DNA from: an uncultured Methanosarcinales archaeon
Lineage (GTDB): Archaea; Nanobdellota; Nanobdellia; Woesearchaeales; ARS49
Length of the DNA: 62,561 nucleotides
Direction of reading: 5' to 3'
Assembly: GCA_964497645.1 (NCBI GenBank)
Contig: CAZCCU010000003.1
Span: 1 to 62,561, forward strand
The translations under genes were made by a program, and so were the position numbers. Every line of letters begins with the position of its first letter. Positions within the stretch are counted from its first letter, which is position 1. The notes under the pieces were generated by a model. It ran no database searches. It had not been told where the DNA came from and was given only the letters and a program-made list of their open reading frames with translations. This document shows, one piece after another, positions 8,172 to 48,215 of the stretch.

Positions 8172-8261
8172 AACTACTTAATAAAGCTTACGGTCATAGA
8201 ACGCAGAAAAGAATATCTCGATTTTGGGCCAAGATTGAAGGCAGCAAATTTGTACTGATTT

Positions 8262-8974: not shown

Positions 8975-9313
8975 ATGGCAGATTACATACGTGCATTGAA
9001 GTGGCCTGTCCTTACTTGGATAGTGCTCGATGTGTTATATTATGTTGTGGGCAAAGTATATGCCCCTGCAGGGCAACTGTTTACGCCGGACATTGCTGCA
9101 ATAACAGCAATCGTATTCGGTATTTGGGGCGGCAGCAAGATTGTCGAGTTCAAAGGCAAATACTTGGATGCTTTTGGCGCAGGTGTTGTTTTGGGCGTTC
9201 TATGCTTCGTCCTATGCCTGCTTGGAGGATTCGGAGCCCCGCTTGGAGTGTACATGGGTATCATGAACCTCTCAGGTGCATTGATTGGCGGCGGATACGC
9301 GCTAACGCGATAA
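8975..9313 (+). CDS. Hypothetical membrane protein (3-4 TM)
   Basis: 112 aa, Gly-rich and hydrophobic throughout. Confidence 0.5.
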   Translation: MADYIRALKWPVLTWIVLDVLYYVVGKVYAPAGQLFTPDIAAITAIVFGIWGGSKIVEFKGKYLDAFGAGVVLGVLCFVLCLLGGFGAPLGVYMGIMNLSGALIGGGYALTR

Positions 9314-9333
9314 TTTTTATTCTTTTATTTTTG
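9314..9333 (+). terminator. Oligo-T tract (archaeal-type terminator candidate)
   Basis: TTTTTATTCTTTTATTTTT immediately follows the stop codon. Confidence 0.35.
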
Positions 9334-9421
9334 ATTTCTCTATTGCTTTCCGCAGAAGGCTTCCATCCCGTCTTCTCACAAATCGTAATCTTTATAATGT
9401 TGCGAGCGCGTCTGTGTATTC

Positions 9422-9895
9422 ATGCAAAAGAAGTTCGGATTGCTAATCGTATTCGCGTTATTGGTTGCGTGCGCTCCGCAGCAACCTGCGCCGGTCCCGA
9501 TGAGTCCTGTTCTTGTTTCTGTGGATGAACTCGTGTGGGCAGACGCTCCGCCTTCTTTGCCTCCAGGTGCGAAAATCGCGGTCATTGAGGCGGGTGGTTT
9601 GAAGAATCCTGAACCGTTCACATTTAGGTTGAAGCTTCCTCCTAATTATGAGATAGCACCGCACACTCATCCTGCGATTGAGCACGTGACGGTCCTCTCA
9701 GGAACTTTCTATTTCGCGGAAGGAAGTGATCCAGAAAAAGCCAGGGAATACACAGCTGGAAGCGTTATAATCATGCCAATCGGTCATTCTATGGTGGCTT
9801 TCACGAAGGATGAAGAGGCAGTCATCCAGGTGCACGGCACCGGCCCGTGGGGAATCACCTACCTAGATTCTGCTGACGATCCGAGAAACAAGTAA
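9422..9895 (+). CDS. Secreted cupin-domain (lipo)protein
   Basis: Signal peptide with lipobox-like LLVACAP. Cupin motif HTHPAIEHVTVLSGTFYF. Confidence 0.65.
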   Translation: MQKKFGLLIVFALLVACAPQQPAPVPMSPVLVSVDELVWADAPPSLPPGAKIAVIEAGGLKNPEPFTFRLKLPPNYEIAPHTHPAIEHVTVLSGTFYFAEGSDPEKAREYTAGSVIIMPIGHSMVAFTKDEEAVIQVHGTGPWGITYLDSADDPRNK

Positions 9896-9898
9896 AAA

Positions 9899-10438
9899 TT
9901 ATCCCAATTCTCTTTTCAATATTTTGTGCGCGCGGTTGATTGCTTTGAATTTGGTCAGATTGCCTGTAGAAACATCAGGGTGGTGTTCTTTTGCTAATGC
10001 CTTGTATCTCTTATTAATAGCGTCTAAATCTTTGGTATCGTGGCTTACTCCCAATGTCTCTCGTGCTTCTTTGCGTTGTTCCTCAACATCTTCTTCCTCT
10101 TTGAATTCGCTGATGAAGTCTTGTATTGTTTTCCGTTTATGGATCACGGCGTCGACTTCAAGCGCGATTACTTTTGAGACGACGTACAAGTTTTCAACAA
10201 ACTTCGAAGCTGCTTCATAGCTGTAGTACATGCGGTGTCCATCCATGAACCACAATACTGATGCGGGAGCGTTTTTCAAGGCGAATTTTTCCATTTGGAC
10301 GTCAATCTGGCTTTCTGGAACTCCTAGTGCGTTCAGCGCTTCGATGATGTGATTCATGAATTGTATGGCTCGCCTGCTGAACGAGTCTTTTACTATGAAC
10401 ATCTCGAATTCATATCCTTTAACTTTTGTTATCGTCAT
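9899..10438 (-). CDS. J-domain protein (C-terminal DnaJ domain)
   Basis: C-terminus reads RYKALAKEHHPDVSTGNLTKFKAINRAHKIL, with an HPD tripeptide. Confidence 0.7.
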   Translation of the reverse strand: MTITKVKGYEFEMFIVKDSFSRRAIQFMNHIIEALNALGVPESQIDVQMEKFALKNAPASVLWFMDGHRMYYSYEAASKFVENLYVVSKVIALEVDAVIHKRKTIQDFISEFKEEEDVEEQRKEARETLGVSHDTKDLDAINKRYKALAKEHHPDVSTGNLTKFKAINRAHKILKRELG

Positions 10439-10481
10439 TATTCATTACCACTCAGTGGTTATATACAAAAAACGCGCGTCC

Positions 10482-10489
10482 TTTATAAA
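10482..10489. promoter_or_regulatory. TATA box TTTATAAA
   Basis: Palindromic TATA between the J-domain gene start (10438, minus) and a structured region on the plus strand. Confidence 0.4.
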
Positions 10490-10548
10490 CTTGGCTATGC
10501 GTATATAACCGAAACATTAAAATGCTCTTATCTTAACTTCTAGCGTGT

Positions 10549-10639
10549 CAAGAACCACGAGTGGTTCTTGAGCATGCTCGGAAACCCCGCGCTTCATATT
10601 ACAATCTGAAGCCAGTGGTTTCCGTGCAAGGGGTTTCCG
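10549..10639 (+). other. Cluster of perfect inverted repeats (structured leader, ncRNA or operator candidates)
   Basis: CAAGAACCAC-GA-GTGGTTCTTG at 10549-10570. CGGAAACCCC (10579-10588) is complementary to both GGTTTCCG (10617-10624) and GGGGTTTCCG (10630-10639). Confidence 0.4.
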
Positions 10640-10643
10640 ACAC

Positions 10644-10787
10644 ATGACCATTGGAAAAAAGGATCTTGAAAAGTTAAGAAAAGGATACCGCGAAGACCTG
10701 GCCATATTGGAAGAAAAATGCAAAGCCGGTAATGCGACTAAAGATGAGTATGAACAGTTGAACAAACTCAGAAAAAAGATGAAATAA
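10644..10787 (+). CDS. Possible 47-aa small ORF
   Basis: Translation MTIGKKDLEKLRKGYREDLAILEEKCKAGNATKDEYEQLNKLRKKMK. Below the ORF-track cutoff. No SD seen. Confidence 0.25.
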   Translation: MTIGKKDLEKLRKGYREDLAILEEKCKAGNATKDEYEQLNKLRKKMK

Positions 10788-11138
10788 TCAGTATTGACAG
10801 AGTCCTGGTACAACACTCGTGATGGTTGCTTCTGAGCCGCACGATTTTTCGCATATTTCTCGTGCTTGGTCCATATTCTCTGCAGTAAGTTTTTCACAGG
10901 TACACTGGTAGCATTCCTGTACATCATGTTGTTCAGGTGGTATTTCTTGGCCGCAGTTTGCCAGGCATTGGCGCAATTCATTGCCACCAAGCGCGTTAAA
11001 ACATTGTGGCTGGCAGTCCAAAGAAGCACCCCACAAACCTGTTGGTTTGTCAGCAAGCATTGTGTACGTCAGACCAATTCCTGCAACGACTGCAAATGCG
11101 AGAAATATGTAAAGTTCTACGTTCCCTCTTTTTGACAT
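10788..11138 (-). CDS. Small Cys-rich secreted/membrane-anchored protein
   Basis: N-terminal TM ELYIFLAFAVVAGIGLTY, then 10 Cys residues. Confidence 0.5.
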   Translation of the reverse strand: MSKRGNVELYIFLAFAVVAGIGLTYTMLADKPTGLWGASLDCQPQCFNALGGNELRQCLANCGQEIPPEQHDVQECYQCTCEKLTAENMDQAREICEKSCGSEATITSVVPGLCQY

Positions 11139-11173
11139 GACTCTTATTAGCTGAGGCGTGTATAAAAATGTTA

Positions 11174-12370
11174 CTATCGTCTTCTTTTCCAGAATTGTTT
11201 CTGTCTTTTCTGTCCGCCGTGGTGTTGGAACGTTCTTTCTTGTGTTGGTCCTGCGACCATGGTGACTTTCTCAAATTTCGGCAGTGGTACAGATGTGACT
11301 TGTCTTCCTGTGCTGCGGAGTATGAGTTTGAAATCGCGTACGTCTTGTGGCGTTACGAACGTGACCGCTTCGCCTTTTGCTCCTGCGCGCGCGGTGCGTC
11401 CGATGCGGTGGACATAATCATCTGCTGTTTGTGGTAGTTCATAATTGTAGACGTGTGAGATATTGTTGATGTGGAGTCCGCGCGAAGCGACATCGGTTGC
11501 AACGAGGATTCCAATTCCGCGTTTGTGCAGTGTGTTGATCGTGTTGATGCGTTTGCTTTGGGAAAGTCCGCCGTGGATTGGTGTCGCGTCGATTTTTTGC
11601 ATGCGTAGATTCTTTGCGACTTTATCGCAGCTGCGTCGTGTTGCGCAGAAAACAAGCGCGATTCCAGGAGTTTCGTGTTTGAGGCAGTGCACCAGAAGGG
11701 AGAATTTGTCTGGCATGGGTACTGCGTATGCTTTTTCAGTGAGCAGGCTCGTGTCGACTTGGGTTTGTCCGTGTACTGGTGTGGGATTGTTCATGTATTT
11801 GTGCACTAGTGCTTTCAGTCGGGGTGATAATGTCGCGCTGAACAATAGTGTCTGTCTGTTTTTTTGAGTATGGCGTAAAATCTTTTCTACATCATCAATG
11901 AATCCCATGTCGAGCATTCGGTCTGCTTCGTCAAGTACTAGGTACTTTACTGTGCTTAGTCTCAGCCCCCGTTCGATCAGGTCGAGTAGTCTGCCGGGTG
12001 TTGCGACGATGACTTCTGCGGTGCGTACTGCGTTGATTTGTTGTCCGATTCCGACTCCGCCGAACACTGGAACGATTTTGAGTGGGAGGTATTTTGCGAA
12101 TCCGCGTAATGCGTCGCTTACTTGAACGCAGAGCTCGCGTGTTGGGGTTAGGATGAGGGATTGGACTCCTTGTCCAGGAGAGACTTTGCTCAGTATCGGG
12201 AGCCCGAACGCGGCTGTTTTTCCTGAGCCGGTTTCTGAGTGCCCGATGATGTCTTTTCCAGTAAGAATTAATGGTATGGCTTGTGATTGGATTAATGTTG
12301 GCGTTGAATATCCTTGGTCGTGTATTGCCTTAAGGATTGGCGCTGGTAGGTTTAGGTTTGAAAATGGCAT
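11174..12370 (-). CDS. DEAD-box ATP-dependent RNA helicase
   Basis: Q-motif region, ETGSGKTAAF (motif I), DEAD, SAT and HRIGRTARAG. Confidence 0.92.
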   Translation of the reverse strand: MPFSNLNLPAPILKAIHDQGYSTPTLIQSQAIPLILTGKDIIGHSETGSGKTAAFGLPILSKVSPGQGVQSLILTPTRELCVQVSDALRGFAKYLPLKIVPVFGGVGIGQQINAVRTAEVIVATPGRLLDLIERGLRLSTVKYLVLDEADRMLDMGFIDDVEKILRHTQKNRQTLLFSATLSPRLKALVHKYMNNPTPVHGQTQVDTSLLTEKAYAVPMPDKFSLLVHCLKHETPGIALVFCATRRSCDKVAKNLRMQKIDATPIHGGLSQSKRINTINTLHKRGIGILVATDVASRGLHINNISHVYNYELPQTADDYVHRIGRTARAGAKGEAVTFVTPQDVRDFKLILRSTGRQVTSVPLPKFEKVTMVAGPTQERTFQHHGGQKRQKQFWKRRR

Positions 12371-12398
12371 GGTCTGCTCTTATCTATTCTTTAAACAT

Positions 12399-12419
12399 CG
12401 GAAATCCAAAGGATTTCCG
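12399..12419. promoter_or_regulatory. 21-bp perfect palindrome CGGAAATCC-AAA-GGATTTCCG upstream of the helicase gene
   Basis: Read directly, 29 nt upstream of the helicase ATG. The half-site resembles CGGAAACCCC/GGTTTCCG at 10579-10639. Confidence 0.45.
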
Positions 12420-12553
12420 AGTGTACTCAAGAACCTAGGTTCTCGATACTATATCTTTGAGAATAGTAATCTATTCACGAGAGTGTTCATTTATAAAGGT
12501 TTGCATGTTTTTTTCAAGAAAACTTTATTAACATCTAAGACGGATAGTCGTTG

Positions 12554-13102
12554 ATGAAATCTCGTTGTTTTGGCAATGGCGACCCTTTGTACGAGCGCTA
12601 TCATGATGAGGAATGGGGAGTTCCGGTTCATGATGACAGGAAATTGTTTGAATTTATTACTTTGGAGGGCGCTCAGGCCGGTCTTTCCTGGAGTACTGTT
12701 TTGAAGAGAAGGGAAGGATACAGAAAAGCCTTCAAGAATTTTGACGCGCAAAAGGTTTCAAAGTTCACTGCAGTGGACGTGAAGCGTTTGATGAATGATG
12801 TTGGAATTATTCGCAACAGGCTTAAGATAGAATCTACTATCAGCAACGCGAAAGCTTTCCTTATAGTTACGAAGGAATTCAGCTCTTTTGACAGATATAT
12901 CTGGCAGTTCACAAAAGGAAAAACTATTAGAAACCGGATAAAGCGCGGTCAGTGGCAGGCGACTTCAAAAGAATCTGATGAAATGTCTGAAGAATTGAAA
13001 AAGCGCGGCTTCAGGTTTGTGGGCAGCACGATTTGTTATGCTTTCATGCAGGCTGTTGGCATGGTGAACGACCACGCTATAGATTGCTGGAAATACTCAT
13101 AA
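12554..13102 (+). CDS. tag: DNA-3-methyladenine glycosylase I
   Basis: The stretch CFGNGDPLYERYHDEEWGVPVHDDRKLFEFITLEGAQAGLSWSTVLKRR is characteristic of Tag. TTTATAAA at 12490. Confidence 0.88.
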   Translation: MKSRCFGNGDPLYERYHDEEWGVPVHDDRKLFEFITLEGAQAGLSWSTVLKRREGYRKAFKNFDAQKVSKFTAVDVKRLMNDVGIIRNRLKIESTISNAKAFLIVTKEFSSFDRYIWQFTKGKTIRNRIKRGQWQATSKESDEMSEELKKRGFRFVGSTICYAFMQAVGMVNDHAIDCWKYS

Positions 13103-13490
13103 GCGAGCTCTTGTATTTCTCTGGAAAATATGCTTTTGCTCTAAAGATAAGTGGCGTCAGTCCTCTTTTCGCCAGCGCTTCTTTTAATCTTGTTTCATCA
13201 ACTTTCTGGTCATATCCTAAGCAAATCACGTCTGGCTTTTCTTGCTCAACAATTTTCAGTTTATCTCCTTCGTTTCCTAAAATCGCCTTATCCACGATTT
13301 GCACAGCAGTCACGCGTGCGTGCCTTTCTTTTTCTCCAAATCTTGGCAGTTTTCCTTTTTCTTTTAGGACTGTTGAATCCCGTGCAACTACAACAATAAG
13401 GTAATCTCCATACTGCTTTGCCTGTCTGAAGTAGTCTAAATGTCCTGGATGCAATATGTCGAATGTCCCCATGCACATGACTTTGCCCAT
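13077..13490 (-). CDS. ribL: Cytidylyltransferase-fold nucleotidyltransferase, RibL-like FAD synthase
   Basis: MGTFDILHPGHLDYF (H-x-G-H motif), about 137 aa. The assignment against other small cytidylyltransferases is uncertain. Confidence 0.55.
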   Translation of the reverse strand: MGKVMCMGTFDILHPGHLDYFRQAKQYGDYLIVVVARDSTVLKEKGKLPRFGEKERHARVTAVQIVDKAILGNEGDKLKIVEQEKPDVICLGYDQKVDETRLKEALAKRGLTPLIFRAKAYFPEKYKSSLMSISSNL

Positions 13491-13672
13491 ACAGCAGTAC
13501 TGTACGTACGTCAGTATTATATCTTTCTTTTTCTATTTAGATTTCAATGGAAAAGAACAGTGGAAGGATGAGCGTTGATTGACGCGTGCGCAAACTCTCA
13601 ACGCAACACGGGCCTTGAGCTGAGCGCTTAGCTATATGCCTTGGCCCATTCCAATTTACTGTTTTATGGTTT

Positions 13673-14362
13673 ATGGAGATGAACAACTTCCCAGGATCGA
13701 TTGATAGAATAGTGAAAGAAAGTGGTGACATTGTAGTAATTTCAAGGGTCGAATATGCGACTTTGTTACAGCGTGCTTCTACAGACAGTCTGACTGGGTT
13801 GAAAAACAAAAGGTGTTTTGAGGATCAGTTGCTTTATGATGTGAGAATGGCCCGGCGGGATATTCAGAAGGGTGGTAGTCCTGATAATGTTGCTTTGTTG
13901 TATTTTGATTTGAATGGTTTGAAATATGTGAATGATGAGTATGGGCATGATGTGGGAGATACAGTGCTAAAGGAATTTGCTGACTTGTTAAAACTCTATT
14001 TCCGCCGCGCATCAGATACGAATGCAAGGGTAGGCGGTGATGAGTTTGCCGCACTGCTGCCAAAGACGGAAATGGAAGAAGCTTGGAGTATGGGAAGAAA
14101 TATTCATAAAGCCGCCCGTCATCTGGGTATCCTTGTGGCAGTCGGCGTGGCAAATTATCGGTTGAGTGTGGAAGATCCTATTGTGGATGGCAGATATACG
14201 CGAAAATTTGAGGATGTTGTGGATGAATTGAAGCAGAAAGCTGATTCCGGCATGTACAGTAATAAAAGAGGAATCTATAGGAAGATAACTCCTCAGCAAT
14301 TTTATGATGCGCATTTCCAAGAGCGCGGTGTGCTTACGATGGCCGAATCTATTGCTGCGTGA
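13673..14362 (+). CDS. GGDEF-domain protein (diguanylate cyclase-like)
   Basis: DSLTGLKNKRCFEDQL, LLYFDLNGLKYVNDEYGHDVGD and an intact RVGGDEFAALLP active-site motif. There is only about 45 aa of N-terminal sequence. Confidence 0.85.
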   Translation: MEMNNFPGSIDRIVKESGDIVVISRVEYATLLQRASTDSLTGLKNKRCFEDQLLYDVRMARRDIQKGGSPDNVALLYFDLNGLKYVNDEYGHDVGDTVLKEFADLLKLYFRRASDTNARVGGDEFAALLPKTEMEEAWSMGRNIHKAARHLGILVAVGVANYRLSVEDPIVDGRYTRKFEDVVDELKQKADSGMYSNKRGIYRKITPQQFYDAHFQERGVLTMAESIAA

Positions 14363-14389
14363 TTATTTTTTGGAATCTATTTGTGAATT

Positions 14390-14614
14390 CTACTGTGCTT
14401 TTGTTTTCTTGTGGTAAACATATAACGCGTACGCCAAGTAAATGAATGATAGAACTCCAAGAATGATTATTACGGCCTGATGCATGATTAATGGCATGAG
14501 GAACGTGTCAAAAGTTCCGATGTAATAAACATACATGGAGCCGACTGAAGACAAAGAGATGACGATTGTTAACAACGACAAGGCCTCAACTAAACTTCTT
14601 TCGTACCTTTTCAT
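14390..14614 (-). CDS. Hypothetical small membrane protein (2 TM)
   Basis: 74 aa, hydrophobic. Confidence 0.4.
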   Translation of the reverse strand: MKRYERSLVEALSLLTIVISLSSVGSMYVYYIGTFDTFLMPLIMHQAVIIILGVLSFIYLAYALYVYHKKTKAQ

Positions 14615-38360: not shown

Positions 38361-39182
38361 ATGGAAGAAACAGTGGAGCCCGAGCATGGTGTATCGCCGG
38401 GTGTTTTAGGTCTTATTGCAGTTCTATCTATCGGTGGCTTGTTGTTCGTTGGCTGGCAGGCAAGCATTGCTGGCCAGTATGCTTCTGGCCCTTACTCGAC
38501 AGCTGGTCCATATGCGAGCTGTTGCACCGTTGAGCCGTGGAGTTCTTCGATCGCTGGATACAGTCCTGGGACTGGTTTGACGACGACAGAAATTTGCAAG
38601 CCGACTGAGCTGCCTCAGCGTTGTTGTGTTCGCGCGACGAGCGAGCGTTATCATTCTCCTGTCAGATTGTTGGACTCGAGCCAGGGCACGTGTCCTGGTC
38701 CTGAGGTGAGTTATCCGTTTGGCGGTGATTATTCTTCGTGTTGTACTGTTCAGTCTTGGAGGAGCGCTCCTACTGGCTTCATTCAGAGCACTGCTGAAAC
38801 GACAACAGAGCGTTGCACTGGTGCCGAAACTCCGACTGAGTGTTGTGCGAGAAATGCTGCGAGCAGGACTGAGTATAGTATTCGCGTTTTAGGCTCGAGA
38901 TTTGGCGACTGTAATCCTCCTGAAATTAATTATCCTGCATCGATCCCTGGCGGTTATACTGCTTGTTGCAGTGGAGAGATGTGGCAGCATGCTCCTACTG
39001 GTTATGCTCAGGGAACCCAGACAAGAACCACTGCATCTTGCGATCCTTTGGAGACTTTGAGCCAGTGTTGTGCGCGTTCTATTACTCAGAATTCTCAGTA
39101 TCCTGTGAAGTTGCAGGGCTTTAGGCTTGGTTCGTGTTTGTCAAGCGGTCCAGAGAAGAGTTATCCTGTTTGGATTAGATAA
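38361..39182 (+). CDS. Membrane-anchored secreted protein with three ~75-aa Cys-rich repeats
   Basis: N-terminal TM LGLIAVLSIGGLLFVGW. Three repeats follow the pattern Y-x-x-CC...W...P-T-G...T-T...C...E-x-x-x-x-CC-x-R...C...YP. Confidence 0.65.
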   Translation: MEETVEPEHGVSPGVLGLIAVLSIGGLLFVGWQASIAGQYASGPYSTAGPYASCCTVEPWSSSIAGYSPGTGLTTTEICKPTELPQRCCVRATSERYHSPVRLLDSSQGTCPGPEVSYPFGGDYSSCCTVQSWRSAPTGFIQSTAETTTERCTGAETPTECCARNAASRTEYSIRVLGSRFGDCNPPEINYPASIPGGYTACCSGEMWQHAPTGYAQGTQTRTTASCDPLETLSQCCARSITQNSQYPVKLQGFRLGSCLSSGPEKSYPVWIR

Positions 39183-39913: not shown

Positions 39914-40006
39914 GATGATGAATGATGATTGGTGCTTTATATAGGTTTGGTTTGCACAAATTATTTAAAGAAAAGATGGTTTCATTGGAAAGAAAAAGGT
40001 GATATA

Positions 40007-40207
40007 ATGAAAATAAGTCCGACAGCTTTGATTATTGTGCTGGTGTTCGCTGCTGTTCTTGGTGTTGGCATGCTCGGCGGTGGTTTGACCGGTCAGGCTT
40101 CTGGCTCAGCTCTTCCTATCACTAATGGTACTGTGTTGAGCGTTATCGCTGCAGTGATAGCTATTGGTGTTCTAATTGTTGCTGGCTTGAATCAAGGAAA
40201 GAATTAA
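40007..40207 (+). CDS. Small membrane protein (2 TM)
   Basis: AAGGTGA lies upstream of the ATG at 40007. Translation begins MKISPTALIIVLVFAAVLGVGMLGGG. Confidence 0.45.
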   Translation: MKISPTALIIVLVFAAVLGVGMLGGGLTGQASGSALPITNGTVLSVIAAVIAIGVLIVAGLNQGKN

Positions 40208-40785
40208 TTTAGGTATTTCTTGATCTCTTTGAGCTGTTGTGGTCCAATCGGCAATGTGTTCTGGCCGCCGTAGACTGAAAGTACAGCTTCTGCGACTTTT
40301 GCTTTTTCAGATTCTTTCTTATCGTTAATGTGTTTCGCAAGGTCTTCGCCGATTTTGTCAGTTGTCACAGCAATGTTCATGTTATACTTTCTGGTTAGTT
40401 CGTCTCTGCTGCCTTCTGCAAATGGTATTTCTTTTGTGCCTTTTTCTTTAGCGTATGCGTCTATAACATTGCCTATGTCGTTTGAGCTTATGTTTCCTTC
40501 CTTGTCTACTTTGAATGCCACGAGCATTTTGTCGTAGTCTGTGAAATCTTTGCCTTTGTCTTTTTCTAAAAGCAGGATGTAGCCGTCGAATGCGTTGGCC
40601 GCAATTCCGTCCTCAAAGCTGTATGAGACTTCTAATTCGATTGTTTTGTAGGCTTGTGCAAGAACAGGGGCGCTTTCTTTCTTTATCGCTAATTCGATTG
40701 GCTTTTGGTTCATTTCTGGCTTTTTCCATTCAGTGCTTGAACAGCCTGCCACTGTCATTAGTAAGGCTACAAGTGATTTTTTCAT
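40204..40785 (-). CDS. Orphan lipoprotein
   Basis: Signal peptide with lipobox LMTVAGCSS. 4-bp overlap with the upstream gene. Confidence 0.6.
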   Translation of the reverse strand: MKKSLVALLMTVAGCSSTEWKKPEMNQKPIELAIKKESAPVLAQAYKTIELEVSYSFEDGIAANAFDGYILLLEKDKGKDFTDYDKMLVAFKVDKEGNISSNDIGNVIDAYAKEKGTKEIPFAEGSRDELTRKYNMNIAVTTDKIGEDLAKHINDKKESEKAKVAEAVLSVYGGQNTLPIGPQQLKEIKKYLN

Positions 40786-41996
40786 TTTTTGTCTCCTTTG
40801 TATTGCTCGTCTAATGCCTTGATTGCGCTGTCAACTTGTACTTTTGTCATGCTGCCTTCTCCTTTGACTTTTCCAGGAGTGTAATTGTTTCTCAGCCAGA
40901 CTAATTGCTGTGCTGGTGTGAGGCTGTATTTTTCAGCTGCTTCTTTCATGCGGGTTAGGTCTTTTGGTTCCATCGCTACTTTTGCATAGCCTCGTATTTC
41001 TGTTTCTGTTCTTAAAGCAACATTTCCCCAGTTGAAGTCTTTGCTGTCTCCAAGTTCTGCAATTTTTCCTTCGAGACTTTTGATTTTCGCATCGAGTTCG
41101 GTTCCGTCCAGGATGTTGTCATCGCCTGCTATCAGGCTGAGCATGTATGTTCTGTCTTCTTCTGTTTGTGGAACTTCGGCTTTTGTTTTTTTGTTGTATG
41201 CTGATTTCATTTCAACGTATTTGTGTCCGAATGAGCCTACTACTGGTGCAAACTTGACTGTGAAGTCTACAATGTAATTTTTTTCTGCTTCTGAAGCTTC
41301 TTTTGGCGCTTCTGGTTTTTCTGCGTCAAGTACGCCTGGAAGGTAGAAGTTTGCTTTGTCTTTTTCGAAATTCGCAACCATTTCTTTGGTGATAAGGATT
41401 GACTGGCCTGCATGCGTGTTTATTTTCTTCGCGCTGTATGCTTTGGCAATCTTTGCTTTTATCATTGCCTGGAAGAGCGGCGTGTTTTCCGCATTTGCTT
41501 CTTTTGCTTTTTCTGCAATAAGCTGGTCCAATTTTTCCTGTGTATTATCTGAGATTTTGTATGCGAAGTTTGGTACTTGTACGCTCATGATTGCCGAGTT
41601 TACTTTCTTTGCCGTGAGGCCTTTGTATTTGTCGTTGCCTGCAATGAATTCTAGAAGGTCGCCTATTTCGACTCCGTTGACGCCGTTTCTGTTAAGCTGT
41701 GTTTCAGCGTACCACATTTCTTCTTCAGGCGAGAACGCTATCTTGTTGGCAGATCGTTTCTGTTCTGCTGCGAGCTTGTTCTCTTTTTCCTGCGTTTCTG
41801 ATTGGACTTTTTCTATGATTGCCAGTGCCATGCCGTGGTTTGCGGATGAGTGGAGTGGCAGGTGGGCTGGTCCGCCTTTTTCAACAGCGTATTCCAGAGT
41901 TTTTTCAGTTTTTGGAGCTTCTTTCGGAGCGTCTTGTGCTGAAATTATGCCTGGGGCTAGAAATCCCAATACGACTGCGAGTTTATTGAAGTTCAT
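40782..41996 (-). CDS. Orphan secreted protein
   Basis: Signal peptide MNFNKLAVVLGFLAPGIISAQD. 404 aa. Abuts the upstream gene. Confidence 0.6.
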   Translation of the reverse strand: MNFNKLAVVLGFLAPGIISAQDAPKEAPKTEKTLEYAVEKGGPAHLPLHSSANHGMALAIIEKVQSETQEKENKLAAEQKRSANKIAFSPEEEMWYAETQLNRNGVNGVEIGDLLEFIAGNDKYKGLTAKKVNSAIMSVQVPNFAYKISDNTQEKLDQLIAEKAKEANAENTPLFQAMIKAKIAKAYSAKKINTHAGQSILITKEMVANFEKDKANFYLPGVLDAEKPEAPKEASEAEKNYIVDFTVKFAPVVGSFGHKYVEMKSAYNKKTKAEVPQTEEDRTYMLSLIAGDDNILDGTELDAKIKSLEGKIAELGDSKDFNWGNVALRTETEIRGYAKVAMEPKDLTRMKEAAEKYSLTPAQQLVWLRNNYTPGKVKGEGSMTKVQVDSAIKALDEQYKGDKK

Positions 41997-43367
41997 TTAT
42001 TCACCGAATATTGCTTTCAATCCGCCTTTCTTCGCTAGTTCGTGTGCTTTCACAACGTCTAGTTTGGTTATCGTTTCTAAATTTCCTAGGTCTGCTGTGT
42101 TGAGGTAAGGCAGCCTTTCGATGAGCTTTTTGTATTGTGCTGGTTCTAAGTCTGCGCGGTTCTCGTATCTCTTCAGTGTTTTTATTAGAGAATTTATGCC
42201 TTCTTCTCCATGGACAGCATCTGGATGGATCGCTCTGGTTACTTTTTCTTCTGTTCCGTCCATTCTTTGGTTTTTGTAAGCAACTTGGTATTCTGTTGCT
42301 TTCGTTTCTGGATCTACTGTGGTCCATGATGCTGTTCCTTCCGCGCGTGCTTCAACTGAGAAGTATGGTTGCGCTGGCACTGTTTTTTCTGCTGTTTTTG
42401 GCGCTTCTGGTTTTGCGCTTTTGTCTGCAGGTTTTTCTGCTGTCTTTGGCGCTTCTGTTTTGGTGCTTTTTTCTGCAGCTTTTGGTTTGTCTTCTACTTT
42501 CTCAACTTTTGGTTTTTCTTGTGGTTGAGTGTAGCCTGATCTGCCTGCAACGTATGCTCCTGCAAGTGCTAGGAATGCTGTTACTGCAGCGCCGACGTAG
42601 CTGATTCTCCTGTATTTCTTATTGTCTGCTAGTAAGCGGTCTTTTTCTGCGGTTTCTGCAGCTTCGTGTTTTGTTTTGTAATCGTCTCGTTCGGTTGTAA
42701 TTCTTGCTTGGTTTGCGTTTGCAGCGGCTTGCTCGGCATCCTTGACATTTATGATGCCTTGATGTAAAGCAACTTCCAAGTCTTTATTTTTTTCAGCAAC
42801 TGCTAAATCCTTATCTTTTGCAGCGACTCTCAATTCTTCGGCGGTTAGTTTGCCTCTGAGTCCTTTGTCGCCTGTAACTGCTGGGTCACCATCGACGAGA
42901 ATTTCGAGTTTTGTTTTGTCTCCTTCTAGTCTTGTAACGTCTTTACCAAGGTAGTGTTTGTCTTTGTCGAGTCCTGCTTTGTCTACTTTTAATCCAGTGA
43001 CTTCTGTTCTTGCAGCGAGTAAATCTCCTCTTGCAGCGTTCAGCTGGCTTTCGTAAACGATTGCTTTTGAAGTTTCTTGTCCAAGTAGACCTATGTTGTC
43101 CTTGACTTTTTGTACTTCTGTGTTGTAAAGTGTGGTAAGATCATTAACATTTTTTTCTAATTGTAATATTCTAGCTTGTTTAGTCCCGTCTAAAGAGGTT
43201 GCGGTAGCTGCTTGTATTGCTGCTTTGTCTTTTGCTCTTTCAATAGAATCATTTTTTCTTCGGAGTTTGTCGATTAATTTCTGATCTGCTTTAAGATCTT
43301 TTTCAAGGTCTTTGTTTTCTGCTTTTGCAGTATTCAATTGGATTTTGATTATGTTTCTGTTAGTCAT
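41997..43367 (-). CDS. Bitopic membrane protein: ~250-aa N-terminal coiled coil, one TM, K/P/A-rich linker, C-terminal globular domain
   Basis: TM YVGAAVTAFLALAGAYVAG. Linker with repeated EAPKTAEK. Confidence 0.6.
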   Translation of the reverse strand: MTNRNIIKIQLNTAKAENKDLEKDLKADQKLIDKLRRKNDSIERAKDKAAIQAATATSLDGTKQARILQLEKNVNDLTTLYNTEVQKVKDNIGLLGQETSKAIVYESQLNAARGDLLAARTEVTGLKVDKAGLDKDKHYLGKDVTRLEGDKTKLEILVDGDPAVTGDKGLRGKLTAEELRVAAKDKDLAVAEKNKDLEVALHQGIINVKDAEQAAANANQARITTERDDYKTKHEAAETAEKDRLLADNKKYRRISYVGAAVTAFLALAGAYVAGRSGYTQPQEKPKVEKVEDKPKAAEKSTKTEAPKTAEKPADKSAKPEAPKTAEKTVPAQPYFSVEARAEGTASWTTVDPETKATEYQVAYKNQRMDGTEEKVTRAIHPDAVHGEEGINSLIKTLKRYENRADLEPAQYKKLIERLPYLNTADLGNLETITKLDVVKAHELAKKGGLKAIFGE

Positions 43368-43452
43368 TTTATGTCAACCCCGCTGTTTATTGCGATATAC
43401 CAGATTCTAGTATATAAATCTTTCTATATATTCACTACTTGATAGTAGTCAT

Positions 43453-44244
43453 CTAATTATGTAGATTGCATCGTGGCAGGCACTGCTGCACGCATCGGTA
43501 TAAGCGTGAACCGCGTACTGCGTTGAAGTATGATTCGCGTGACTGGGAATACTGCTCGAGTTCTTCGCGGGTGGACTGTTGGACTTTTCTGTTGCCTTCA
43601 GCTCTCATTCCTGCTACGAATCCTTCAGAATATCTCTTGTCTGATTTGTGAAGATCGTATTCTGCTTTTTCCCAGTCTTTGTGAGCTCCGAGTACGTCTG
43701 GTGCTTTCTTGCCGGTGTTTGTAATCATTTGAGGTTTTTGAGCCTGTTCGAGGTCTAGTTGGCCGATGAACGCTTTTGTGCCTTCTCCAAGCTCTGCTAT
43801 GATGTTTTCAAGCTCGTGTTGTATGATTACTCGACGATTATCGCCTCTGTCTCTTTTGTCTGTTTTAGCCAAAAGCTGGTAAAGGTCGTGTGCCGTGATA
43901 TTTCCGTTGCCTGTAAGCTCTCGTTTTGCTTTGCAGAGCGCAAGGTAGAAATCCGACTGCCAGTATGATTTGACTGCATGGTTTTCAAAGTAGAATTTGT
44001 CATCAAATGGGAGCTTGTCGTTTTTTTTGAAAAGGATGTATGGCTGTGCTGTTTTTTCGTCTTCCTGGAGTTCTATATCTTTCAATTTTGGGTGCTTTTT
44101 CGGGCTTACCTTTTTTTCAAGAGATTCAGTTCGCTCATGTTCAGGGCTCGGTTTATCCGGTATTGCGCCTTTTTGTAAATAGAATCCTGCTGCGGCAAAT
44201 ACCGGTAGTAATATTCCGATTGCGTAGTCTTTCCATGTTGGCAT
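43453..44244 (-). CDS. N-terminally anchored orphan protein
   Basis: TM YAIGILLPVFAAAGFY. 263 aa. Confidence 0.55.
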   Translation of the reverse strand: MPTWKDYAIGILLPVFAAAGFYLQKGAIPDKPSPEHERTESLEKKVSPKKHPKLKDIELQEDEKTAQPYILFKKNDKLPFDDKFYFENHAVKSYWQSDFYLALCKAKRELTGNGNITAHDLYQLLAKTDKRDRGDNRRVIIQHELENIIAELGEGTKAFIGQLDLEQAQKPQMITNTGKKAPDVLGAHKDWEKAEYDLHKSDKRYSEGFVAGMRAEGNRKVQQSTREELEQYSQSRESYFNAVRGSRLYRCVQQCLPRCNLHN

Positions 44245-44410
44245 ATTGATTACCTTCCTTTACAATCTATATTCATCTTAACTATTTAAATCTTTCGTTT
44301 TTTCACCACTGTGAAGTGTCGAAATAGCCCTATAGAAGTGGAAAATCCACTCACGAAATGTTTATATAGTATATGGAGTAAGTTTGGCTAGGTCAAAAAG
44401 GGTTGAATGA

Positions 44411-46348
44411 ATGGCTGCAAAGACTGCTTTTGGTAAATATTTGGATCCTATCCGGGTATACGACTATTCTCCGAAGTTATGGGATTTTGTCCTGTTAACG
44501 CTGATATTATTCTATGTCATTAAGCGAGCGTTTCTTACTGCGCACGCGATGAGGGCTAAAACCCTGGGCACTACAGGCACAGAGGACCATAAGAAAACTG
44601 ACAATGTTCTTTCCTTCCTTATTGCATTGGTCATGGCTATTGGCTTGATGCGCTTTGGCAAAGTATCCATGCAGTTCGCATTTACTTCTGGAATTCTGCC
44701 TGGGTTTGCTGCAGCGATCCTGGGCTTTGGCGCTTATAACACTCTGCTTGGGATGATGGGAAAGGAGAGATGGCCTATTGCGATGGGCATTGCAGCGGTT
44801 ATCGGCATTGGTGTTTTTGCCGCGCTGCGTTCTGCTGCTGGCGGAGATTATGAGTGGATGTATATACTTTTCTGGTTTGTCGGAATAATGATTTTTGTGA
44901 GCCTGGCGAAAGGCTCGAGTGCAGGGACAGCTCAAGCTGAAGGGACGGGGAATGTTGCGCAGAGTGCAAGGAGTGCAGGTGCTGCTGCTGACAGGCTGTC
45001 AAATTCTGTTACAGGTGCAATGGGAGATGTGGGCGAAGCTGCCAGTGCTGAGGACAAGGCTTTGCAGAATGCCCGCCAGGGTCTGAACTTGGCCCAGCAG
45101 CTGACCGGTGAGACTGTTTCAGATGCGATGGTGACAGATGCCAATAGCGCGTTCATGGCAACTTTGAGTTCATACCGCAAATTTGCGGATAAATTGAAAC
45201 TGATAAGCACGAAGTTGGGGGATGCTCGTACAATGAGAATTGCCGTGGAGAATGAAGAGCGGAATGCGCTTACGGAATTCAATAAGCTCTCGACCACTGG
45301 AAAGCATGCAAGGGAGATCAGGAGTTTGCACGTCGACTTCAAGTCCAAGTGCGATGCTTTCAACCAGCATATTGATGCTATATTTTCAATCGTGGGAACC
45401 GAAAATGCTGCAATCACTGCATTCAATTCTGATTTGACAACAAAACTGGCCGCATTGGAAATCAAGCTGAAGGAATTCGAGACGCTCATGGGGACGCTTA
45501 GAGGGGCGAAGGGGCTTGCGAAGAAAATCGGCAGTGCAGGAATACAACCGGCAGTTCGCAAAAGCCAGCTGCAAAATCTTGGAAAGGAGCTGTATATGCA
45601 GTTGAATGAGTTGATAGCGAGTTCCGAGGTAAAGGCTGGAAACCTTAAGCATTTGCACGATATGTTGGCAGGTCTTCCGCAGATTGTCCGCGCTCATCGC
45701 CAATACCTTGATGGTTTCAATGCCGAGGTAACACGTCTTGGAGCTGAGATTACAGCAGCAGGAACAAGTGAGGCGGCTACTAATACTGCGATTACTTCCA
45801 GGGAAGCTTTTATCAGGTCGTTCCCTCTTGCTGCCAATAATGCAAATACATTTGCTGGCCTGTTGACCAGTCCGAGTGGTTTGACTGCAAAGGCAGCTCC
45901 CGAATTACAGACCTGGTTCGCTGCTGATTATAAGGCTTTGTTTGATGCAATGGGTATTGCGAGGATTAATGTTGATAAGGCTGTAACAGACATAAATGCT
46001 TTCATTACAAATGCGAGAGCTGCCAGTGCTTCTCCTGCTTTGATTTCATTGTCATCTGTTATGAGTGGAGAACTGGATAGTTTGAAAAGTCTTGTTGATA
46101 ATATCCAGACAGAAATTCCGAATCCTACTGGCACTCCTACGTCAGGTATTACGAATTACTTTGAAGATTTGAATACGCTGCCTTCGACGATGCCCACAAA
46201 GCCCCTTGAAGATAAGATTAAGGCGTGGATTGCTCGTATGGGAGGACAGGCCGCGGATATCAAGAACAGAGTGACTGAACTGAAGACGCACATGAGCAGT
46301 TTGTCAACTTTGGATGTGAGGCCTGGAGTGCCTCCGGTAACACCATAA
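44411..46348 (+). CDS. Polytopic membrane protein with ~470-aa Ala-rich all-helical C-terminal domain
   Basis: About 5 N-terminal TM helices, followed by long low-complexity helical sequence. Confidence 0.6.
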   Translation: MAAKTAFGKYLDPIRVYDYSPKLWDFVLLTLILFYVIKRAFLTAHAMRAKTLGTTGTEDHKKTDNVLSFLIALVMAIGLMRFGKVSMQFAFTSGILPGFAAAILGFGAYNTLLGMMGKERWPIAMGIAAVIGIGVFAALRSAAGGDYEWMYILFWFVGIMIFVSLAKGSSAGTAQAEGTGNVAQSARSAGAAADRLSNSVTGAMGDVGEAASAEDKALQNARQGLNLAQQLTGETVSDAMVTDANSAFMATLSSYRKFADKLKLISTKLGDARTMRIAVENEERNALTEFNKLSTTGKHAREIRSLHVDFKSKCDAFNQHIDAIFSIVGTENAAITAFNSDLTTKLAALEIKLKEFETLMGTLRGAKGLAKKIGSAGIQPAVRKSQLQNLGKELYMQLNELIASSEVKAGNLKHLHDMLAGLPQIVRAHRQYLDGFNAEVTRLGAEITAAGTSEAATNTAITSREAFIRSFPLAANNANTFAGLLTSPSGLTAKAAPELQTWFAADYKALFDAMGIARINVDKAVTDINAFITNARAASASPALISLSSVMSGELDSLKSLVDNIQTEIPNPTGTPTSGITNYFEDLNTLPSTMPTKPLEDKIKAWIARMGGQAADIKNRVTELKTHMSSLSTLDVRPGVPPVTP

Positions 46349-46380
46349 GTTTTTTAACCTTTTCTTTCTAGCTCTATTGC

Positions 46381-47229
46381 ATGGGGCGTAAAAAGTCAAT
46401 TATTGCGGCAGTATTCACCGGCATCGGCAGAGGCATTGCTTGGATTATCGTCAATATTTTCAAGGCTCTGTGGTTTTTGATAGTTGGCTTGTTCAAAGGC
46501 GCTAAATCCGCTACTAAAGCCACTGCTTCTGCTGCTTCAAAAGTGCATCACGATGCTAAAGTTCGTGCAGAACAGCCTAAGGTTCCTGCGAATTATGATT
46601 CATTGAAAGAATCAACTGCGGTCAAAGGCTCTATTGAATCTTTCGAGCACCGTTTGTTGAATGAAAGCCTTATTCTGGCTGTTGCCGGCAGGCGTGGCAG
46701 TGGAAAGTCTGTTCTTGGCTTCAGAATTCTTGAGAACATTCACGCGAAGACGCAGAGGCCATGTTTTGCTCTTGGTGTTAAGCAGTCCGTTTTGCCTTCT
46801 TGGATAACAACTATAGAGGAAATCAGCCAGGTTTCCAATCGTGGCGTTGTATTGGTTGACGAGGGCGCGATTAGTTTTGGCAGCAGGGAGAGCATGAGCA
46901 AGGGTAATCGTGGTCTTGCTGGTCTGCTCGCGATAGCCCGTCATAAAGACCTGACTTTAATCTTCATAACCCAAAATACTGGCATGATTGACAAGAACGT
47001 TCTGAACTTGTGCGACACTATATTACTGAAGGAAGGCAGTTTGTTGCAGGAGAAGATGGAGCGCAGTGTGATGAAGGATTTGTATGTTACTGCTAATTCT
47101 GCTTTGTCTGAAATTCCTGCTCACGAGCGAAAGCCTTACTGTTATATTTTCGACGCAGAGTTTGAAGGTCTTGTCCAAGCCTCCTTGCCAAGTTTCTGGA
47201 GCGTTAAAGTGAGCAAGAATCAGGCATGA
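46381..47229 (+). CDS. TM-anchored mini P-loop ATPase, FtsK/HerA-superfamily-like
   Basis: N-terminal TM. Walker A AGRRGSGKS and Walker B GVVLVDEGA. IARHKDLTLIFITQNTGMIDKNVLNLCDTILL resembles the HerA/FtsK/VirB4 R-finger/sensor region. Confidence 0.6.
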   Translation: MGRKKSIIAAVFTGIGRGIAWIIVNIFKALWFLIVGLFKGAKSATKATASAASKVHHDAKVRAEQPKVPANYDSLKESTAVKGSIESFEHRLLNESLILAVAGRRGSGKSVLGFRILENIHAKTQRPCFALGVKQSVLPSWITTIEEISQVSNRGVVLVDEGAISFGSRESMSKGNRGLAGLLAIARHKDLTLIFITQNTGMIDKNVLNLCDTILLKEGSLLQEKMERSVMKDLYVTANSALSEIPAHERKPYCYIFDAEFEGLVQASLPSFWSVKVSKNQA

Positions 47230-48215
47230 CAAACTTCTGCTTAGGCATCGAAAGCACCGCGCACACCTTTGGCTGTGGAATCGTGACTTTTGAAGGAAAC
47301 ATTATTGCGAACGAAAAAAATACTTTTACGACTGAAACAGGCGGTCTTATCCCAAGTGAAGTCGCTAAGCATCATGAGCAGTTGAAAGATGTTATTCTGC
47401 AAAAAGCTCTTGCCTCTGCAAAACTCGAAATGAAAGACATCTCGCTTATTTCTTATTCTGCCGCTCCTGGCCTTGCGCCTTCTTTGTTAGTAGGACTAAA
47501 ATTTGCCAAAGAGCTTGCCAAGAAGCATAATATTCCATTAATTGGCGTCAACCATAGCATTTGTCATTTAACCATCGGTGATTTAATCTGCGGCACAAAA
47601 GATGTAGTCTATCTTTACGTCTCTGGTCCCAACACGCAAGTCATTGCGTATGCTGGTAAAAGATATCGTATTTTTGGCGAAACATTGGACATCGGTCTTG
47701 GCAACATGTTGGACAAGTTTGCTAGAGAGATCGGTCTTGGTTTTCCAGGCGGTCCTAAAGTCGAGCAGTTGGCGAAGTTAGGAAAGAATTACGCAGAATT
47801 GCCGTATTCCGTGAAAGGTATGGATGTTTCCTTTGCGGGAATGCTTACAAAAGCGTTGAGATTGCATAAGCAAGGCGCTTCTAAAGAAGATTTGTGTTTC
47901 AGCTTGCAAGAAACCGCGTTTGCCATGCTTGCAGAAGTTGCAGAGCGTGCAATGGCTCATACTGACAAGAAAGAGTTATTGCTTATAGGCGGTGTTGCTG
48001 CCAACAAGCGTTTGGGAGAGATGCTTAACATCATGTGCGATGAGCGCGGCGCGAAATTCTTTGCCGTGCCTTTGCAATACAGCGGCGATCAGGGTGTGAT
48101 GATTGCCTGGCAGGGTGTTCAGCAGTTCAAGGCTGGAGAAACAATTGATCCTGACAAGGCAGAAATCAGGCCCTACGAGCGTGTTGATGAGGTTGAGGTG
48201 ACGTGGCGTGAGTAG
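47226..48215 (+). CDS. kae1: tRNA N6-adenosine threonylcarbamoyltransferase Kae1
   Basis: LGIESTAHTFGCGIV, HSICHL and GGVAANKRL. No fused Bud32 domain. Confidence 0.92.
   Translation: MTNFCLGIESTAHTFGCGIVTFEGNIIANEKNTFTTETGGLIPSEVAKHHEQLKDVILQKALASAKLEMKDISLISYSAAPGLAPSLLVGLKFAKELAKKHNIPLIGVNHSICHLTIGDLICGTKDVVYLYVSGPNTQVIAYAGKRYRIFGETLDIGLGNMLDKFAREIGLGFPGGPKVEQLAKLGKNYAELPYSVKGMDVSFAGMLTKALRLHKQGASKEDLCFSLQETAFAMLAEVAERAMAHTDKKELLLIGGVAANKRLGEMLNIMCDERGAKFFAVPLQYSGDQGVMIAWQGVQQFKAGETIDPDKAEIRPYERVDEVEVTWRE

Follow-up and report, generated by a model that had tools for sequence, protein, structure and literature searches.

Do six neighbouring genes of a Woesearchaeal chromosome build one machine that crosses the cell envelope, or do two separate units lie side by side there? 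The question is raised by positions 40204-47229 of contig CAZCCU010000003.1 (assembly GCA_964497645.1; Woesearchaeales, a DPANN archaeon), whose 62,561 nucleotides (nt) were analysed as a whole and are referred to as the window. At this locus, four minus-strand genes for membrane and exported proteins (A to D) diverge from a plus-strand gene for a polytopic protein (E), which is followed by the gene of a small ATPase (F). An earlier note on this DNA had interpreted the six as a cluster of orphan envelope proteins with a transmembrane (TM)-anchored, mini FtsK/HerA-like ATPase, and had suggested a novel secretion, DNA-transfer or cell-contact apparatus or a membrane-virus-like module. The list of open reading frames (ORFs) contains all six genes at the positions reported there, and their topologies are roughly those that had been outlined.

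DPANN archaea represent a large share of archaeal diversity and most of them are thought to be attached to other cells; to our knowledge, hardly any of the molecules behind this contact and exchange have been described, and a cultured Woesearchaeote does not exist. The interpretation that we favour, with moderate confidence, is that the locus combines two side-by-side units, namely a housekeeping-like ATPase, possibly with the downstream gene kae1, and a clade-restricted, fast-evolving envelope cluster comprising A-E. Independent units are likelier than a single machine because the ATPase gene has its own promoter-like box, overlaps kae1 and diverges at a housekeeping rate, and because most members of its family occur without such neighbours.

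Distribution and conservation of the ATPase

The homologues of the ATPase (46381-47229, plus strand; 282 amino acids (aa)) form 310 clusters at 90% identity, are 50-93% identical to the query and are located on contigs of up to 969 kb. Nearly all clusters with a source name originate from Woesearchaeota or Nanoarchaeia, and one from Aenigmarchaeota. An exhaustive profile search retrieved 1687 clusters of the family (50% identity) at E <= 1e-3, including 232 at E <= 1e-30. The comparison of gene order drew on species-representative genomes (37 loci) and metagenomes (several more), ~45 loci in all (L-numbers denote loci of relatives with an ATPase homologue). Across these loci, the identity of the ATPase (50-93%) tracks that of Kae1 and Lon. 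In distant Woesearchaeota and Aenigmarchaeota, the gene is found without A-E among housekeeping genes (hisS, ftsZ, ribosomal proteins), and its neighbours there show no clear excess of membrane or secreted genes (39-44% versus a background of 33%, in a crude count). The ATPase is a vertically inherited, strongly constrained chromosomal core gene of Woesearchaeota/Nanoarchaeia.

Gene order, which the earlier note had put forward as a check, is therefore conserved in part: the order and topologies of A-E are kept within a narrow clade, and the ATPase is found without them in distant lineages. Likewise, the independent scattering that was to speak against a common function is seen for half of the locus, as the ATPase separates from the rest and A-E stay together within the narrow clade.

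In a second Woesearchaeal clade (L001, L018, L020, L022, L026 and L044), the ATPase gene and ftsZ are encoded on opposite strands, 0.3-2 kb apart, with hisS upstream of the former in all of these loci except L026. It is possible that this closeness reflects a link to cell division or plain synteny. An ORF for a cytosolic protein of ~95 aa precedes the ATPase gene in L001, L017, L018 and L020 and overlaps its start in L001 and L017. More remote relatives (30-37% identical, 350-395 aa, no TM segment) are encoded on Dehalococcoidia chromosomes (L037, L038 and L040). L037 has two paralogous copies (4287-14610) near serine recombinase- and parB-like genes, which were judged by eye without profile confirmation, and this suggests a mobile-element context for the Dehalococcoidia proteins. 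Fusions within the family (P0206, P0218 and P0199) join the ATPase core to a thioredoxin, to a C39-like peptidase plus thioredoxin or to a Fic domain, architectures that are apparently undescribed. No paper tying Zot-, FtsK- or HerA-type ATPases to DPANN was found in a literature search; ranking among the better conserved proteins of the group and undiscussed in the literature searched, the ATPase is a concrete target for biochemistry.

Transcription units

The ATPase gene is predicted to have its own promoter. A TTTTTTAA box (46350-46357, plus strand) directly follows the stop codon of E, ~27 nt before the ATG of the ATPase gene, and is a probable promoter of this gene with a leaderless-type spacing. 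A (C/T)TTTTTAA(C/A)C motif is equally spaced from the ATPase start in the window, L005-L012, L014 and L019, and TATA-like boxes occur at the same distance in distant relatives without E (L003, L021, L026, L028-L030 and L033). At the other end, the stop codon of the ATPase gene overlaps the start codon of kae1/tsaD (ATGA), which argues for co-transcription of the two. The latter gene (47226-48215, plus strand; Pfam TsaD, 9e-77) functions in t6A synthesis and belongs to the context of the envelope cluster, not to the cluster itself. The junction is equally direct in L007, L010, L015, L016 and L031 and is interrupted or lost in L005, L006, L009, L012, L013, L019 and L042. A single co-inherited module of six genes does not agree with an ATPase that is widely conserved, preceded by a promoter-like box of its own and translationally coupled to kae1.

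D and E are separated by a divergent spacer of 166 bp (44245-44410), in which a TATA-like box is found for either gene: TTTAAATA for D (44283-44290, minus strand) and TTTATATA for E (44361-44368, plus strand). An N-anchored gene likewise diverges from a polytopic one in L005, L007, L009, L010, L012, L013, L014 and L019. On the minus strand, the reading frames of A and B share 4 nt and B abuts C. A further TATA-like box, TTTATATA (43411-43418, minus strand), was read from the sequence inside the 85-nt gap between C and D, ~45 nt upstream of the start of C, and is the probable promoter of a C-B-A unit. Since C is preceded by its own TATA-like box in this gap, D and C-B-A are probably transcribed separately. 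The four tightly linked minus-strand genes of the earlier note therefore probably represent two transcription units. A GGGTTGA-like, purine-rich motif, located 5-8 nt upstream of the start codons of E (44395-44410) and C (43371-43386), possibly serves both genes in ribosome binding or regulation.

A variable block between conserved flanks

In the clade in which the ATPase is at least ~63% identical to that of the window, one gene order recurs: a Cys-rich protein, PAC2, the small protein sm92, a variable block of ~5-7 kb, the ATPase and usually Kae1-YbaK-zinc ribbon-Lon. This slot was observed in L005, L007, L009, L013, L014, L016 and L019. The A-E proteins of L005 are only 45-51% identical to those of the window (C and E align only partly), compared with identities of 93% (ATPase), 88% (PAC2) and 84% (sm92). 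That L005 keeps all five genes, with order and orientation unchanged, at this level of protein identity indicates that A-E are real genes. In L007, L009 and L019, the ATPase is still 83-91% identical, and tblastn with A-E finds almost nothing. The block of these three loci contains a polytopic helical protein of 683-743 aa whose gene ends 33 nt before that of the ATPase, a divergent N-anchored gene facing it, a bitopic protein with a mid-chain TM segment and a terminal lipoprotein. Except for the C-type protein, most of these are, by sensitive comparison, true but extremely diverged homologues of the proteins of the window.

The nucleotide identity of the flanks between species is 73-84%, and even in the closest relative ~20% of positions differ. 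A nucleotide identity of ~80% in the flanks implies saturated synonymous sites. The divergence of A-E may be the result of accelerated evolution or of recombinational cassette replacement. Conserved flanks, a divergent centre, predicted membrane or exported products and alternative versions mark A-E, on sequence criteria, as a hypervariable envelope island at a conserved locus. Such a fixed architecture combined with a fast sequence turnover is the pattern that is expected of host-recognition or virus-receptor structures.

Among 20 proteins from the variant clusters of relatives, Pfam detected only coiled-coil noise, weak EF-hand matches and one Ser/Thr kinase. Ser/Thr protein kinase genes are located at the far edge of the variant clusters in L012 (2288-3565), L013 (3324-4487) and L016 (3973-4845). 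The L012 kinase has a C-terminal TM segment and a Pfam Pkinase match of 1.4e-27; the L013 and L016 genes were grouped with it by phmmer only. In L042, a kinase-TPR protein is encoded just downstream of the ATPase (9249-11246).

Family and fold of the ATPase

An alignment of 31 orthologues of the ATPase contains 61 invariant columns. These comprise Walker A, GRRGSGKS (residues 103-110; nt 46687-46710), and Walker B, VVLVDEG (residues 156-162; nt 46846-46866), which provides the catalytic Glu of the FtsK-HerA superfamily, as well as a flexible, basic or Ser-rich loop, SR.SMSK.N (residues 168-176), shortly after Walker B. The ARH...ITQ segment that the earlier note had pointed out is ARHKDLTLIFITQ (residues 186-198; nt 46936-46974), in which R187, H188, K189, T197 and Q198 are invariant, and CDT follows at residues 211-213. 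The FtsK-HerA signature, reportedly defined by Iyer et al. in 2004, is said to consist of a conserved Arg followed by a sensor-1 strand that ends in a polar residue, usually Gln. The invariant Arg and polar residues of the window protein would correspond to the Arg finger and the sensor. The last core strand lies 16 residues before the end of the protein, and the C-terminal tail LPSFWS..VSKNQA, from nt 47185 onwards, is conserved, its LPSFW..SKNQA residues being counted among the invariant columns. At the N-terminus, a hydrophobic helix of 33 residues (6-38; nt 46396-46494) has an internal Gly-Arg-Gly and basic residues on either side, which suggests a hairpin or interfacial anchor with a cytoplasmic ATPase domain. 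With a strict hydrophobicity threshold, which misses the anchor of some anchored orthologues, no TM anchor was called in 97 of 123 representative relatives.

The sequence profiles point to Zot. The window ATPase matches Pfam Zot (PF05707) with 18.1 bits (gathering score 20.3; E 0.002), all 31 orthologues match it at E <= 0.01 (best 2e-7), and NCBI names several of them 'zonular occludens toxin domain-containing'. The impression that none of the six proteins belongs to a recognised family consequently holds for A-E and is revised for the ATPase, of which the window copy falls just below the threshold. PHROGs yields weak scores for M13 protein I, Zot-like toxin and a terminase family, PADLOC a weak, partial mad8 match (E 4e-7, 27.8 bits) and Pox_A32 a weak match in only 3 of the 31 orthologues. 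A search of the PDB sequences with the ATPase profile gave only P-loop-level matches to PilF and VirB11.

The AlphaFold (AF2) model, built with the 31 orthologues, reaches a mean predicted local distance difference test (pLDDT) score of 80 and consists of a long N-terminal helix (7-63) and an alpha/beta core (76-266). Foldseek ranks STIV2 B204, TcpA, EssC/EccC, TrwK/VirB4 and the FtsK motor first among PDB structures, with probability 1.0 and E-values from 3e-6 to 1e-4 (3e-6 for B204, 3.6e-6 for TcpA) at modest TM-scores (0.4-0.58). HerA and the Zot N-domain are matched as well, and RecA and KaiC rank lower; an unrelated KaiC/RecA-type protein or an ABC fragment, the outcome that had been named as fatal to the original assignment, is thus not what was found. 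Among the predicted viral structures of BFVD, packaging ATPases of the A32-like kind come out on top, together with FtsK-like proteins and one protein from a Nitrosopumilus spindle-shaped virus. The mini FtsK/HerA-like ATPase proposed at the outset is confirmed by these fold matches. By sequence profiles and predicted structure, the 282-aa protein is a small, membrane-tethered P-loop ATPase of the FtsK-HerA superfamily of the Zot/phage-pI type, and it is a new, N-terminally anchored variant of this Zot/FtsK-HerA kind.

A role that is unrelated to the neighbouring genes has to be considered for such a protein: it could be the missing FtsK-like division or segregation translocase of archaea that divide with FtsZ, or a DNA-uptake pump. 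The membrane anchor, a basic linker of ~40 aa and an FtsK-HerA motor mirror a minimal FtsK, and the gene is conserved at the level of a core gene, with ftsZ close by in the second Woesearchaeal clade. The loop SR.SMSK.N is invariant, and ARHxxLxLIFITQ seems to resemble the ARAAGIHLxLATQ signature of FtsK. However, the protein lacks the alpha and gamma domains of FtsK as well as any DNA-binding domain, its sequence is closer to Zot/pI than to FtsK, and the linkage to ftsZ, found in one clade only, may be plain synteny. We consider this role doubtful.

Test for a viral or mobile origin

The viral relatives of the ATPase raise a further possibility, namely that a provirus or mobile element of a membrane-virus or filamentous kind (Zot-carrying, pleolipovirus- or inovirus-like) has been domesticated, or is decaying, in this region. 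Inoviruses (pI/Zot) and membrane-containing viruses (B204, A32) use this type of ATPase, here it adjoins membrane and secreted proteins without cellular homologues, and the Dehalococcoidia relatives lie near the by-eye, profile-unconfirmed serine recombinase- and parB-like genes. Nevertheless, the locus occupies the same chromosomal position in many species and the divergence of the ATPase is vertical and housekeeping-like. Family and tRNA scans of the window detected no integrase, replication gene, capsid gene, tRNA or att site, the Rfam scan of the window was empty, and the GC content is even across it, without anomaly. No double-jelly-roll capsid or other virion family was recognised in A-E or the flanks. 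No relatives were found among 2.9 million IMG/VR contigs, tblastn against 50,697 phage records returned one weak inovirus Zot match (E 9e-4), and the search for an inovirus gene context (coat, pIII/pVI, replication protein, secretin) gave no PHROG structural matches on the neighbours of the ATPase.

The even GC content, the absence of tRNA, Rfam, integrase, replication and capsid matches and the cross-species synteny make a recent provirus unlikely, and an ancient domestication of a virus-type ATPase is possible. Overall, we rate a proviral nature of the region as very improbable, and the membrane-virus-like module that the earlier note had offered found no support in these searches.

Products of the envelope cluster

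Searches of A-E against Pfam, PHROGs, NCBIfam and PADLOC returned only noise, far below the cut-offs. Three such matches, an Rz-like spanin (0.0037), the ZorA tail (0.086) and LenA/B (8e-4), were dismissed as noise, and PADLOC identified no known anti-phage defence on A-E.

Protein E (44411-46348, plus strand; 645 aa) has five hydrophobic segments (residues 23-37, 65-80, 93-116, 123-139 and 150-166), followed by an Ala/Thr/Ser-rich region of ~470 aa (14% Ala) that is predicted to be all-helical, with helices of 40-73 residues. The pLDDT of its AF2 model is 68 overall, 80-90 in the helical part and low in the TM part. The loop after the first TM segment is very basic, and the soluble domain of the L010 orthologue contains a zinc ribbon, so the helical domain is probably cytoplasmic. 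In L010 (4073-6066), the E orthologue carries this CPxC...CxxC zinc ribbon as an insertion and seems to be split or frameshifted into ORFs of 506 and 166 aa. The fold search with E gave no match below E 0.07, and what it listed, ClyA/Hbl-like toxins, dynamin stalks and designed helical bundles, scored no better than chance; the PDB sequence search gave nothing significant.

Homologue searches with the single E sequence and with a 9-sequence profile retrieved the same 4 proteins each, as Ala-rich words swamp the word index. The E family had 7 members in a first clustering and has 9 directly upstream of the ATPase with L008 and L011 added. In L013, L015 and L016, E is split into a four-TM protein of 120 aa and a coiled-coil protein of 566-740 aa (hhalign probabilities 63% and 92%); these split relatives (E3) weakly match only coiled-coil or filament models (intermediate-filament, crescentin-rod, apolipoprotein). 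In L042, an E-like gene is located 4.7 kb upstream of the ATPase. An insertion sequence (IS; DDE_Tnp_IS240) and a nucleotidyltransferase toxin-antitoxin-like pair lie between this E-like block and the ATPase (6134-8001); the pair, whose second gene has no Pfam match, is also present in L021.

Protein D (43453-44244, minus strand; 263 aa) is encoded divergently from E, has an N-terminal hydrophobic anchor at residues 8-23 and matches no family in Pfam, PHROGs or NCBIfam. Its two versions, D1 (window, L005 and L010) and D2 (L007, L009 and L019), are homologous (hhalign probability 96%, E 3.5e-9).

Protein C (41997-43367, minus strand; 456 aa) appears to be bitopic. Its N-terminal ~250 aa are charged, helical and coiled-coil-like, a TM segment at residues 255-275 is preceded by KKYRR (N-in), and a Pro/Lys/Ala/Glu linker of 54 aa (281-334) leads to a C-terminal domain of ~120 aa. 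Composition, weak coiled-coil matches and the positive-inside rule together suggest this coiled-coil assignment and topology. Only the C-terminal 127 aa can be aligned with the L005 orthologue (46% identity), and the proteins encoded at its position in L007, L009 and L019 share this topology, but hhalign detects no homology (probability 5%).

Protein B (40782-41996, minus strand; 404 aa) has a cleavable-looking signal peptide (...IISA|QD) and is predicted to be secreted; Pfam, NCBIfam and the PDB gave no match. It is 52% identical to its L005 orthologue, whereas the L019 and L009 versions reach only 27-33% over stretches of 85-113 aa, and its C-terminus, YKGDKK, is conserved in kind across the variants. 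Protein A (40204-40785, minus strand; 193 aa), the product of the last gene of the minus-strand unit, begins with MKKSLVALLMTVAG|C, a lipobox (LLMTVAG|C) that marks it as a lipoprotein, and is 48% identical to its L005 orthologue. A and B are paralogues that share a domain and, with their counterparts in L005, L007, L009 and L019, were joined by phmmer into one family of 10, for which hhalign found no relationship with the C and D families. An EF-hand-like DxDxNG loop is present in the A-family counterparts of L009, L019, L010 and L014 and degenerate in the window.

One apparatus or two units

If the locus consists of two units, the ATPase would be transcribed with kae1 from its own promoter, independently of A-E. 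By analogy with the FtsK-HerA superfamily, of which DNA is the commonest substrate, it would most likely form a ring on the cytoplasmic face of the membrane and drive the movement of a polymer with ATP. On the inner side of the membrane, E and C would hold their long helical or coiled-coil regions in place; the outer face would carry the C-terminal domain of C on its Pro/Lys-rich stalk, D, the secreted B and the lipoprotein A. Together, A-E most likely build a trans-membrane scaffold or surface structure under diversifying pressure, involved in contact with host or partner cells or serving as virus receptors. Within the clade, E and the ATPase stay adjacent, and the latter may therefore act on this structure or together with it, a link that is at present only positional.

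Several points weigh against the separation of the two units. In every examined relative with an ATPase at least ~63% identical, an E-family gene or its split form is located directly or closely upstream of the ATPase. This adjacency survives both the loss of the kae1 link (L005) and the insertion of an IS and a toxin-antitoxin pair (L042). Pili, type IV secretion systems and archaella normally combine a conserved motor with variable exposed parts, and the mismatch in evolutionary rate is hence no argument against a coupling. In addition, topology, ring formation and substrate are all inferred, the TM part of E is modelled with low confidence and the synteny sample covers only ~45 loci.

The adjacency would fit one trans-envelope apparatus, in which the ATPase is the cytoplasmic motor, E (with C) the membrane platform, and the outer parts are provided by A, B, D and the C-terminal domain of C. 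Such a machine of Woesearchaeota would be novel and could serve secretion, filament assembly, DNA transfer or cell contact, with partners encoded elsewhere where the cluster is not adjacent. E and the ATPase remain neighbours through local rearrangements in all 12-13 relatives at or above ~63% identity, and the cluster spans the expected topologies (polytopic, stalked bitopic, secreted, lipoprotein). The ATPase tail LPSFW..SKNQA looks like a docking peptide. Membrane-anchored ATPases of the superfamily typically pair with polytopic partners, as in TcpA, EssC, VirB4/VirB6 and pI with pXI/pIV, and the fold matches of the window ATPase fit this pattern. However, the ATPase is coupled to kae1 and not to E, and is preceded by a promoter-like box. 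The ATPase has no conserved membrane partner in distant lineages, where the crude neighbour count shows no clear enrichment of membrane or secreted proteins (39-44% versus 33% background), the strict, under-calling cut-off leaves 97 of 123 relatives without an anchor, and A-E match no component of type IV, type VII, Ced or pilus systems. We therefore see one apparatus as a possible but on balance unlikely explanation.

A bolder version is that Woesearchaeota and related DPANN archaea have domesticated a virus-type (Zot/A32-like) extrusion or packaging ATPase as a core gene, which in this clade powers a previously undescribed trans-envelope machine, with E and C as the inner platform and the hypervariable D, B and A as outer, partner-specific parts, and that this machine moves DNA or protein between symbiont and host. 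We hold this version to be quite improbable. If the ATPase and A-E are coupled, the locus would encode a new kind of archaeal trans-envelope machine. If they are uncoupled, as in the two-unit interpretation that we prefer, it still offers a defined surface locus that evolves fast and suits population-genomic work, together with an ATPase family, so far unstudied, of ~1,700 clusters at 50% identity.

Flanking genes and organism labels

The flanking genes are archaeal housekeeping genes, encoding PAC2, Kae1/TsaD, a YbaK-type editing domain, a TFIIB-type zinc ribbon and LonB, and the names of the best matches assign the contig to Woesearchaeota/Nanoarchaeia. Next to A, the gene of sm92 (39929-40207, plus strand) encodes a 92-aa protein with two TM segments and a Gly-rich loop; it converges on A and overlaps its 3' end by 4 nt. 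Conserved at 51-84% identity, sm92 consistently bounds the variable block on the left in L005, L007, L009, L010, L013, L014, L016 and L019. The Cys-rich protein (38361-39182, plus strand; 273 aa) has an N-terminal TM segment and about four repeats of ~55 residues, each with a CC...C...CC pattern. It contains 7% Cys and 1% Lys, has no Pfam match and looks like another exposed envelope protein. Its gene is kept upstream of PAC2 in relatives, and its identity is uneven (88% in L005, 37-53% elsewhere).

The organism labels of L005-L007, L014, L015, L017, L019, L023 and L024, many of which read 'uncultured Methanosarcinales archaeon' and one 'Candidatus Binatia bacterium', are probably placeholder or wrong names.

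Comparison with known systems

Type IV and Ced/Ted systems would be expected to have a two-domain ATPase of the VirB4/CedB type of at least 600 aa, whereas the window ATPase comprises 282 aa and a single domain. Pfam, NCBIfam, PDB and Foldseek searches found no partners of these systems (VirB6/CedA-like or VirB2-like pilin); with the low-confidence TM model of E, a remote similarity to VirB6 is possible. The type VII system, with its three-ATPase EssC/EccC, has one EssC/EccC-like ATPase domain in common with the locus and nothing further, as profile searches detected none of its partner families, be it EsaA, EssA and EssB, EccB, EccD and EccE or WXG100 substrates. More broadly, FtsK/SpoIIIE, TcpA (pCW3), EssC/EccC and VirB4 are likewise N-anchored FtsK-HerA motors, and the window ATPase also adjoins a polytopic protein. 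It is far smaller than FtsK, TcpA, EssC and VirB4, being a single domain without the alpha/gamma, FHA or VirB4 N-terminal domains, and none of the neighbouring proteins matched VirB6, VirB8, EsaA, EssB or Ced components.

With STIV2 B204, PRD1 P9 and poxvirus A32, the ATPase has the small, single-domain core of ~200 aa in common. B204 is its best structural match (target-normalised TM-score 0.56-0.58), yet sequence identity to these enzymes is only 13-16% and the viral enzymes are devoid of an N-terminal membrane helix. The likeness to Zot/pI (PF05707) comprises the P-loop core DE(G/C)...F..R...ARH/K..(D/W)hhhhh(T/V)Q...hDK and membrane association. Zot/pI proteins are composed of an ATPase domain, a TM segment and a C-terminal extracytoplasmic domain; in the window protein this arrangement is reversed, with an N-terminal anchor and no extracytoplasmic domain. 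In contrast to Zot/pI, the window ATPase is moreover chromosomal, archaeal and vertically inherited, with no phage genes around it.

For E, EzrA-like proteins and crescentin/FilP-like coiled-coil-rich proteins offer an analogy only. No significant sequence or fold match to them was obtained, and the matches seen lie far under the family cut-offs and reflect composition or coiled-coil character; E similarly combines an N-terminal anchor with several hundred residues of long helices, to which C adds ~250 aa. For A-E as a whole, the counterpart is the flexible genomic island of the replacement type, which encodes exposed surface structures such as O-antigen, S-layer and glycoprotein islands. Unlike in these islands, the comparison of A-E was made between species instead of strains, and no glycosylation genes are located inside. 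A-E have in common with them the sharply divergent centre between conserved flanks, products that are all predicted to be membrane-bound or exported, and at least two barely alignable types.

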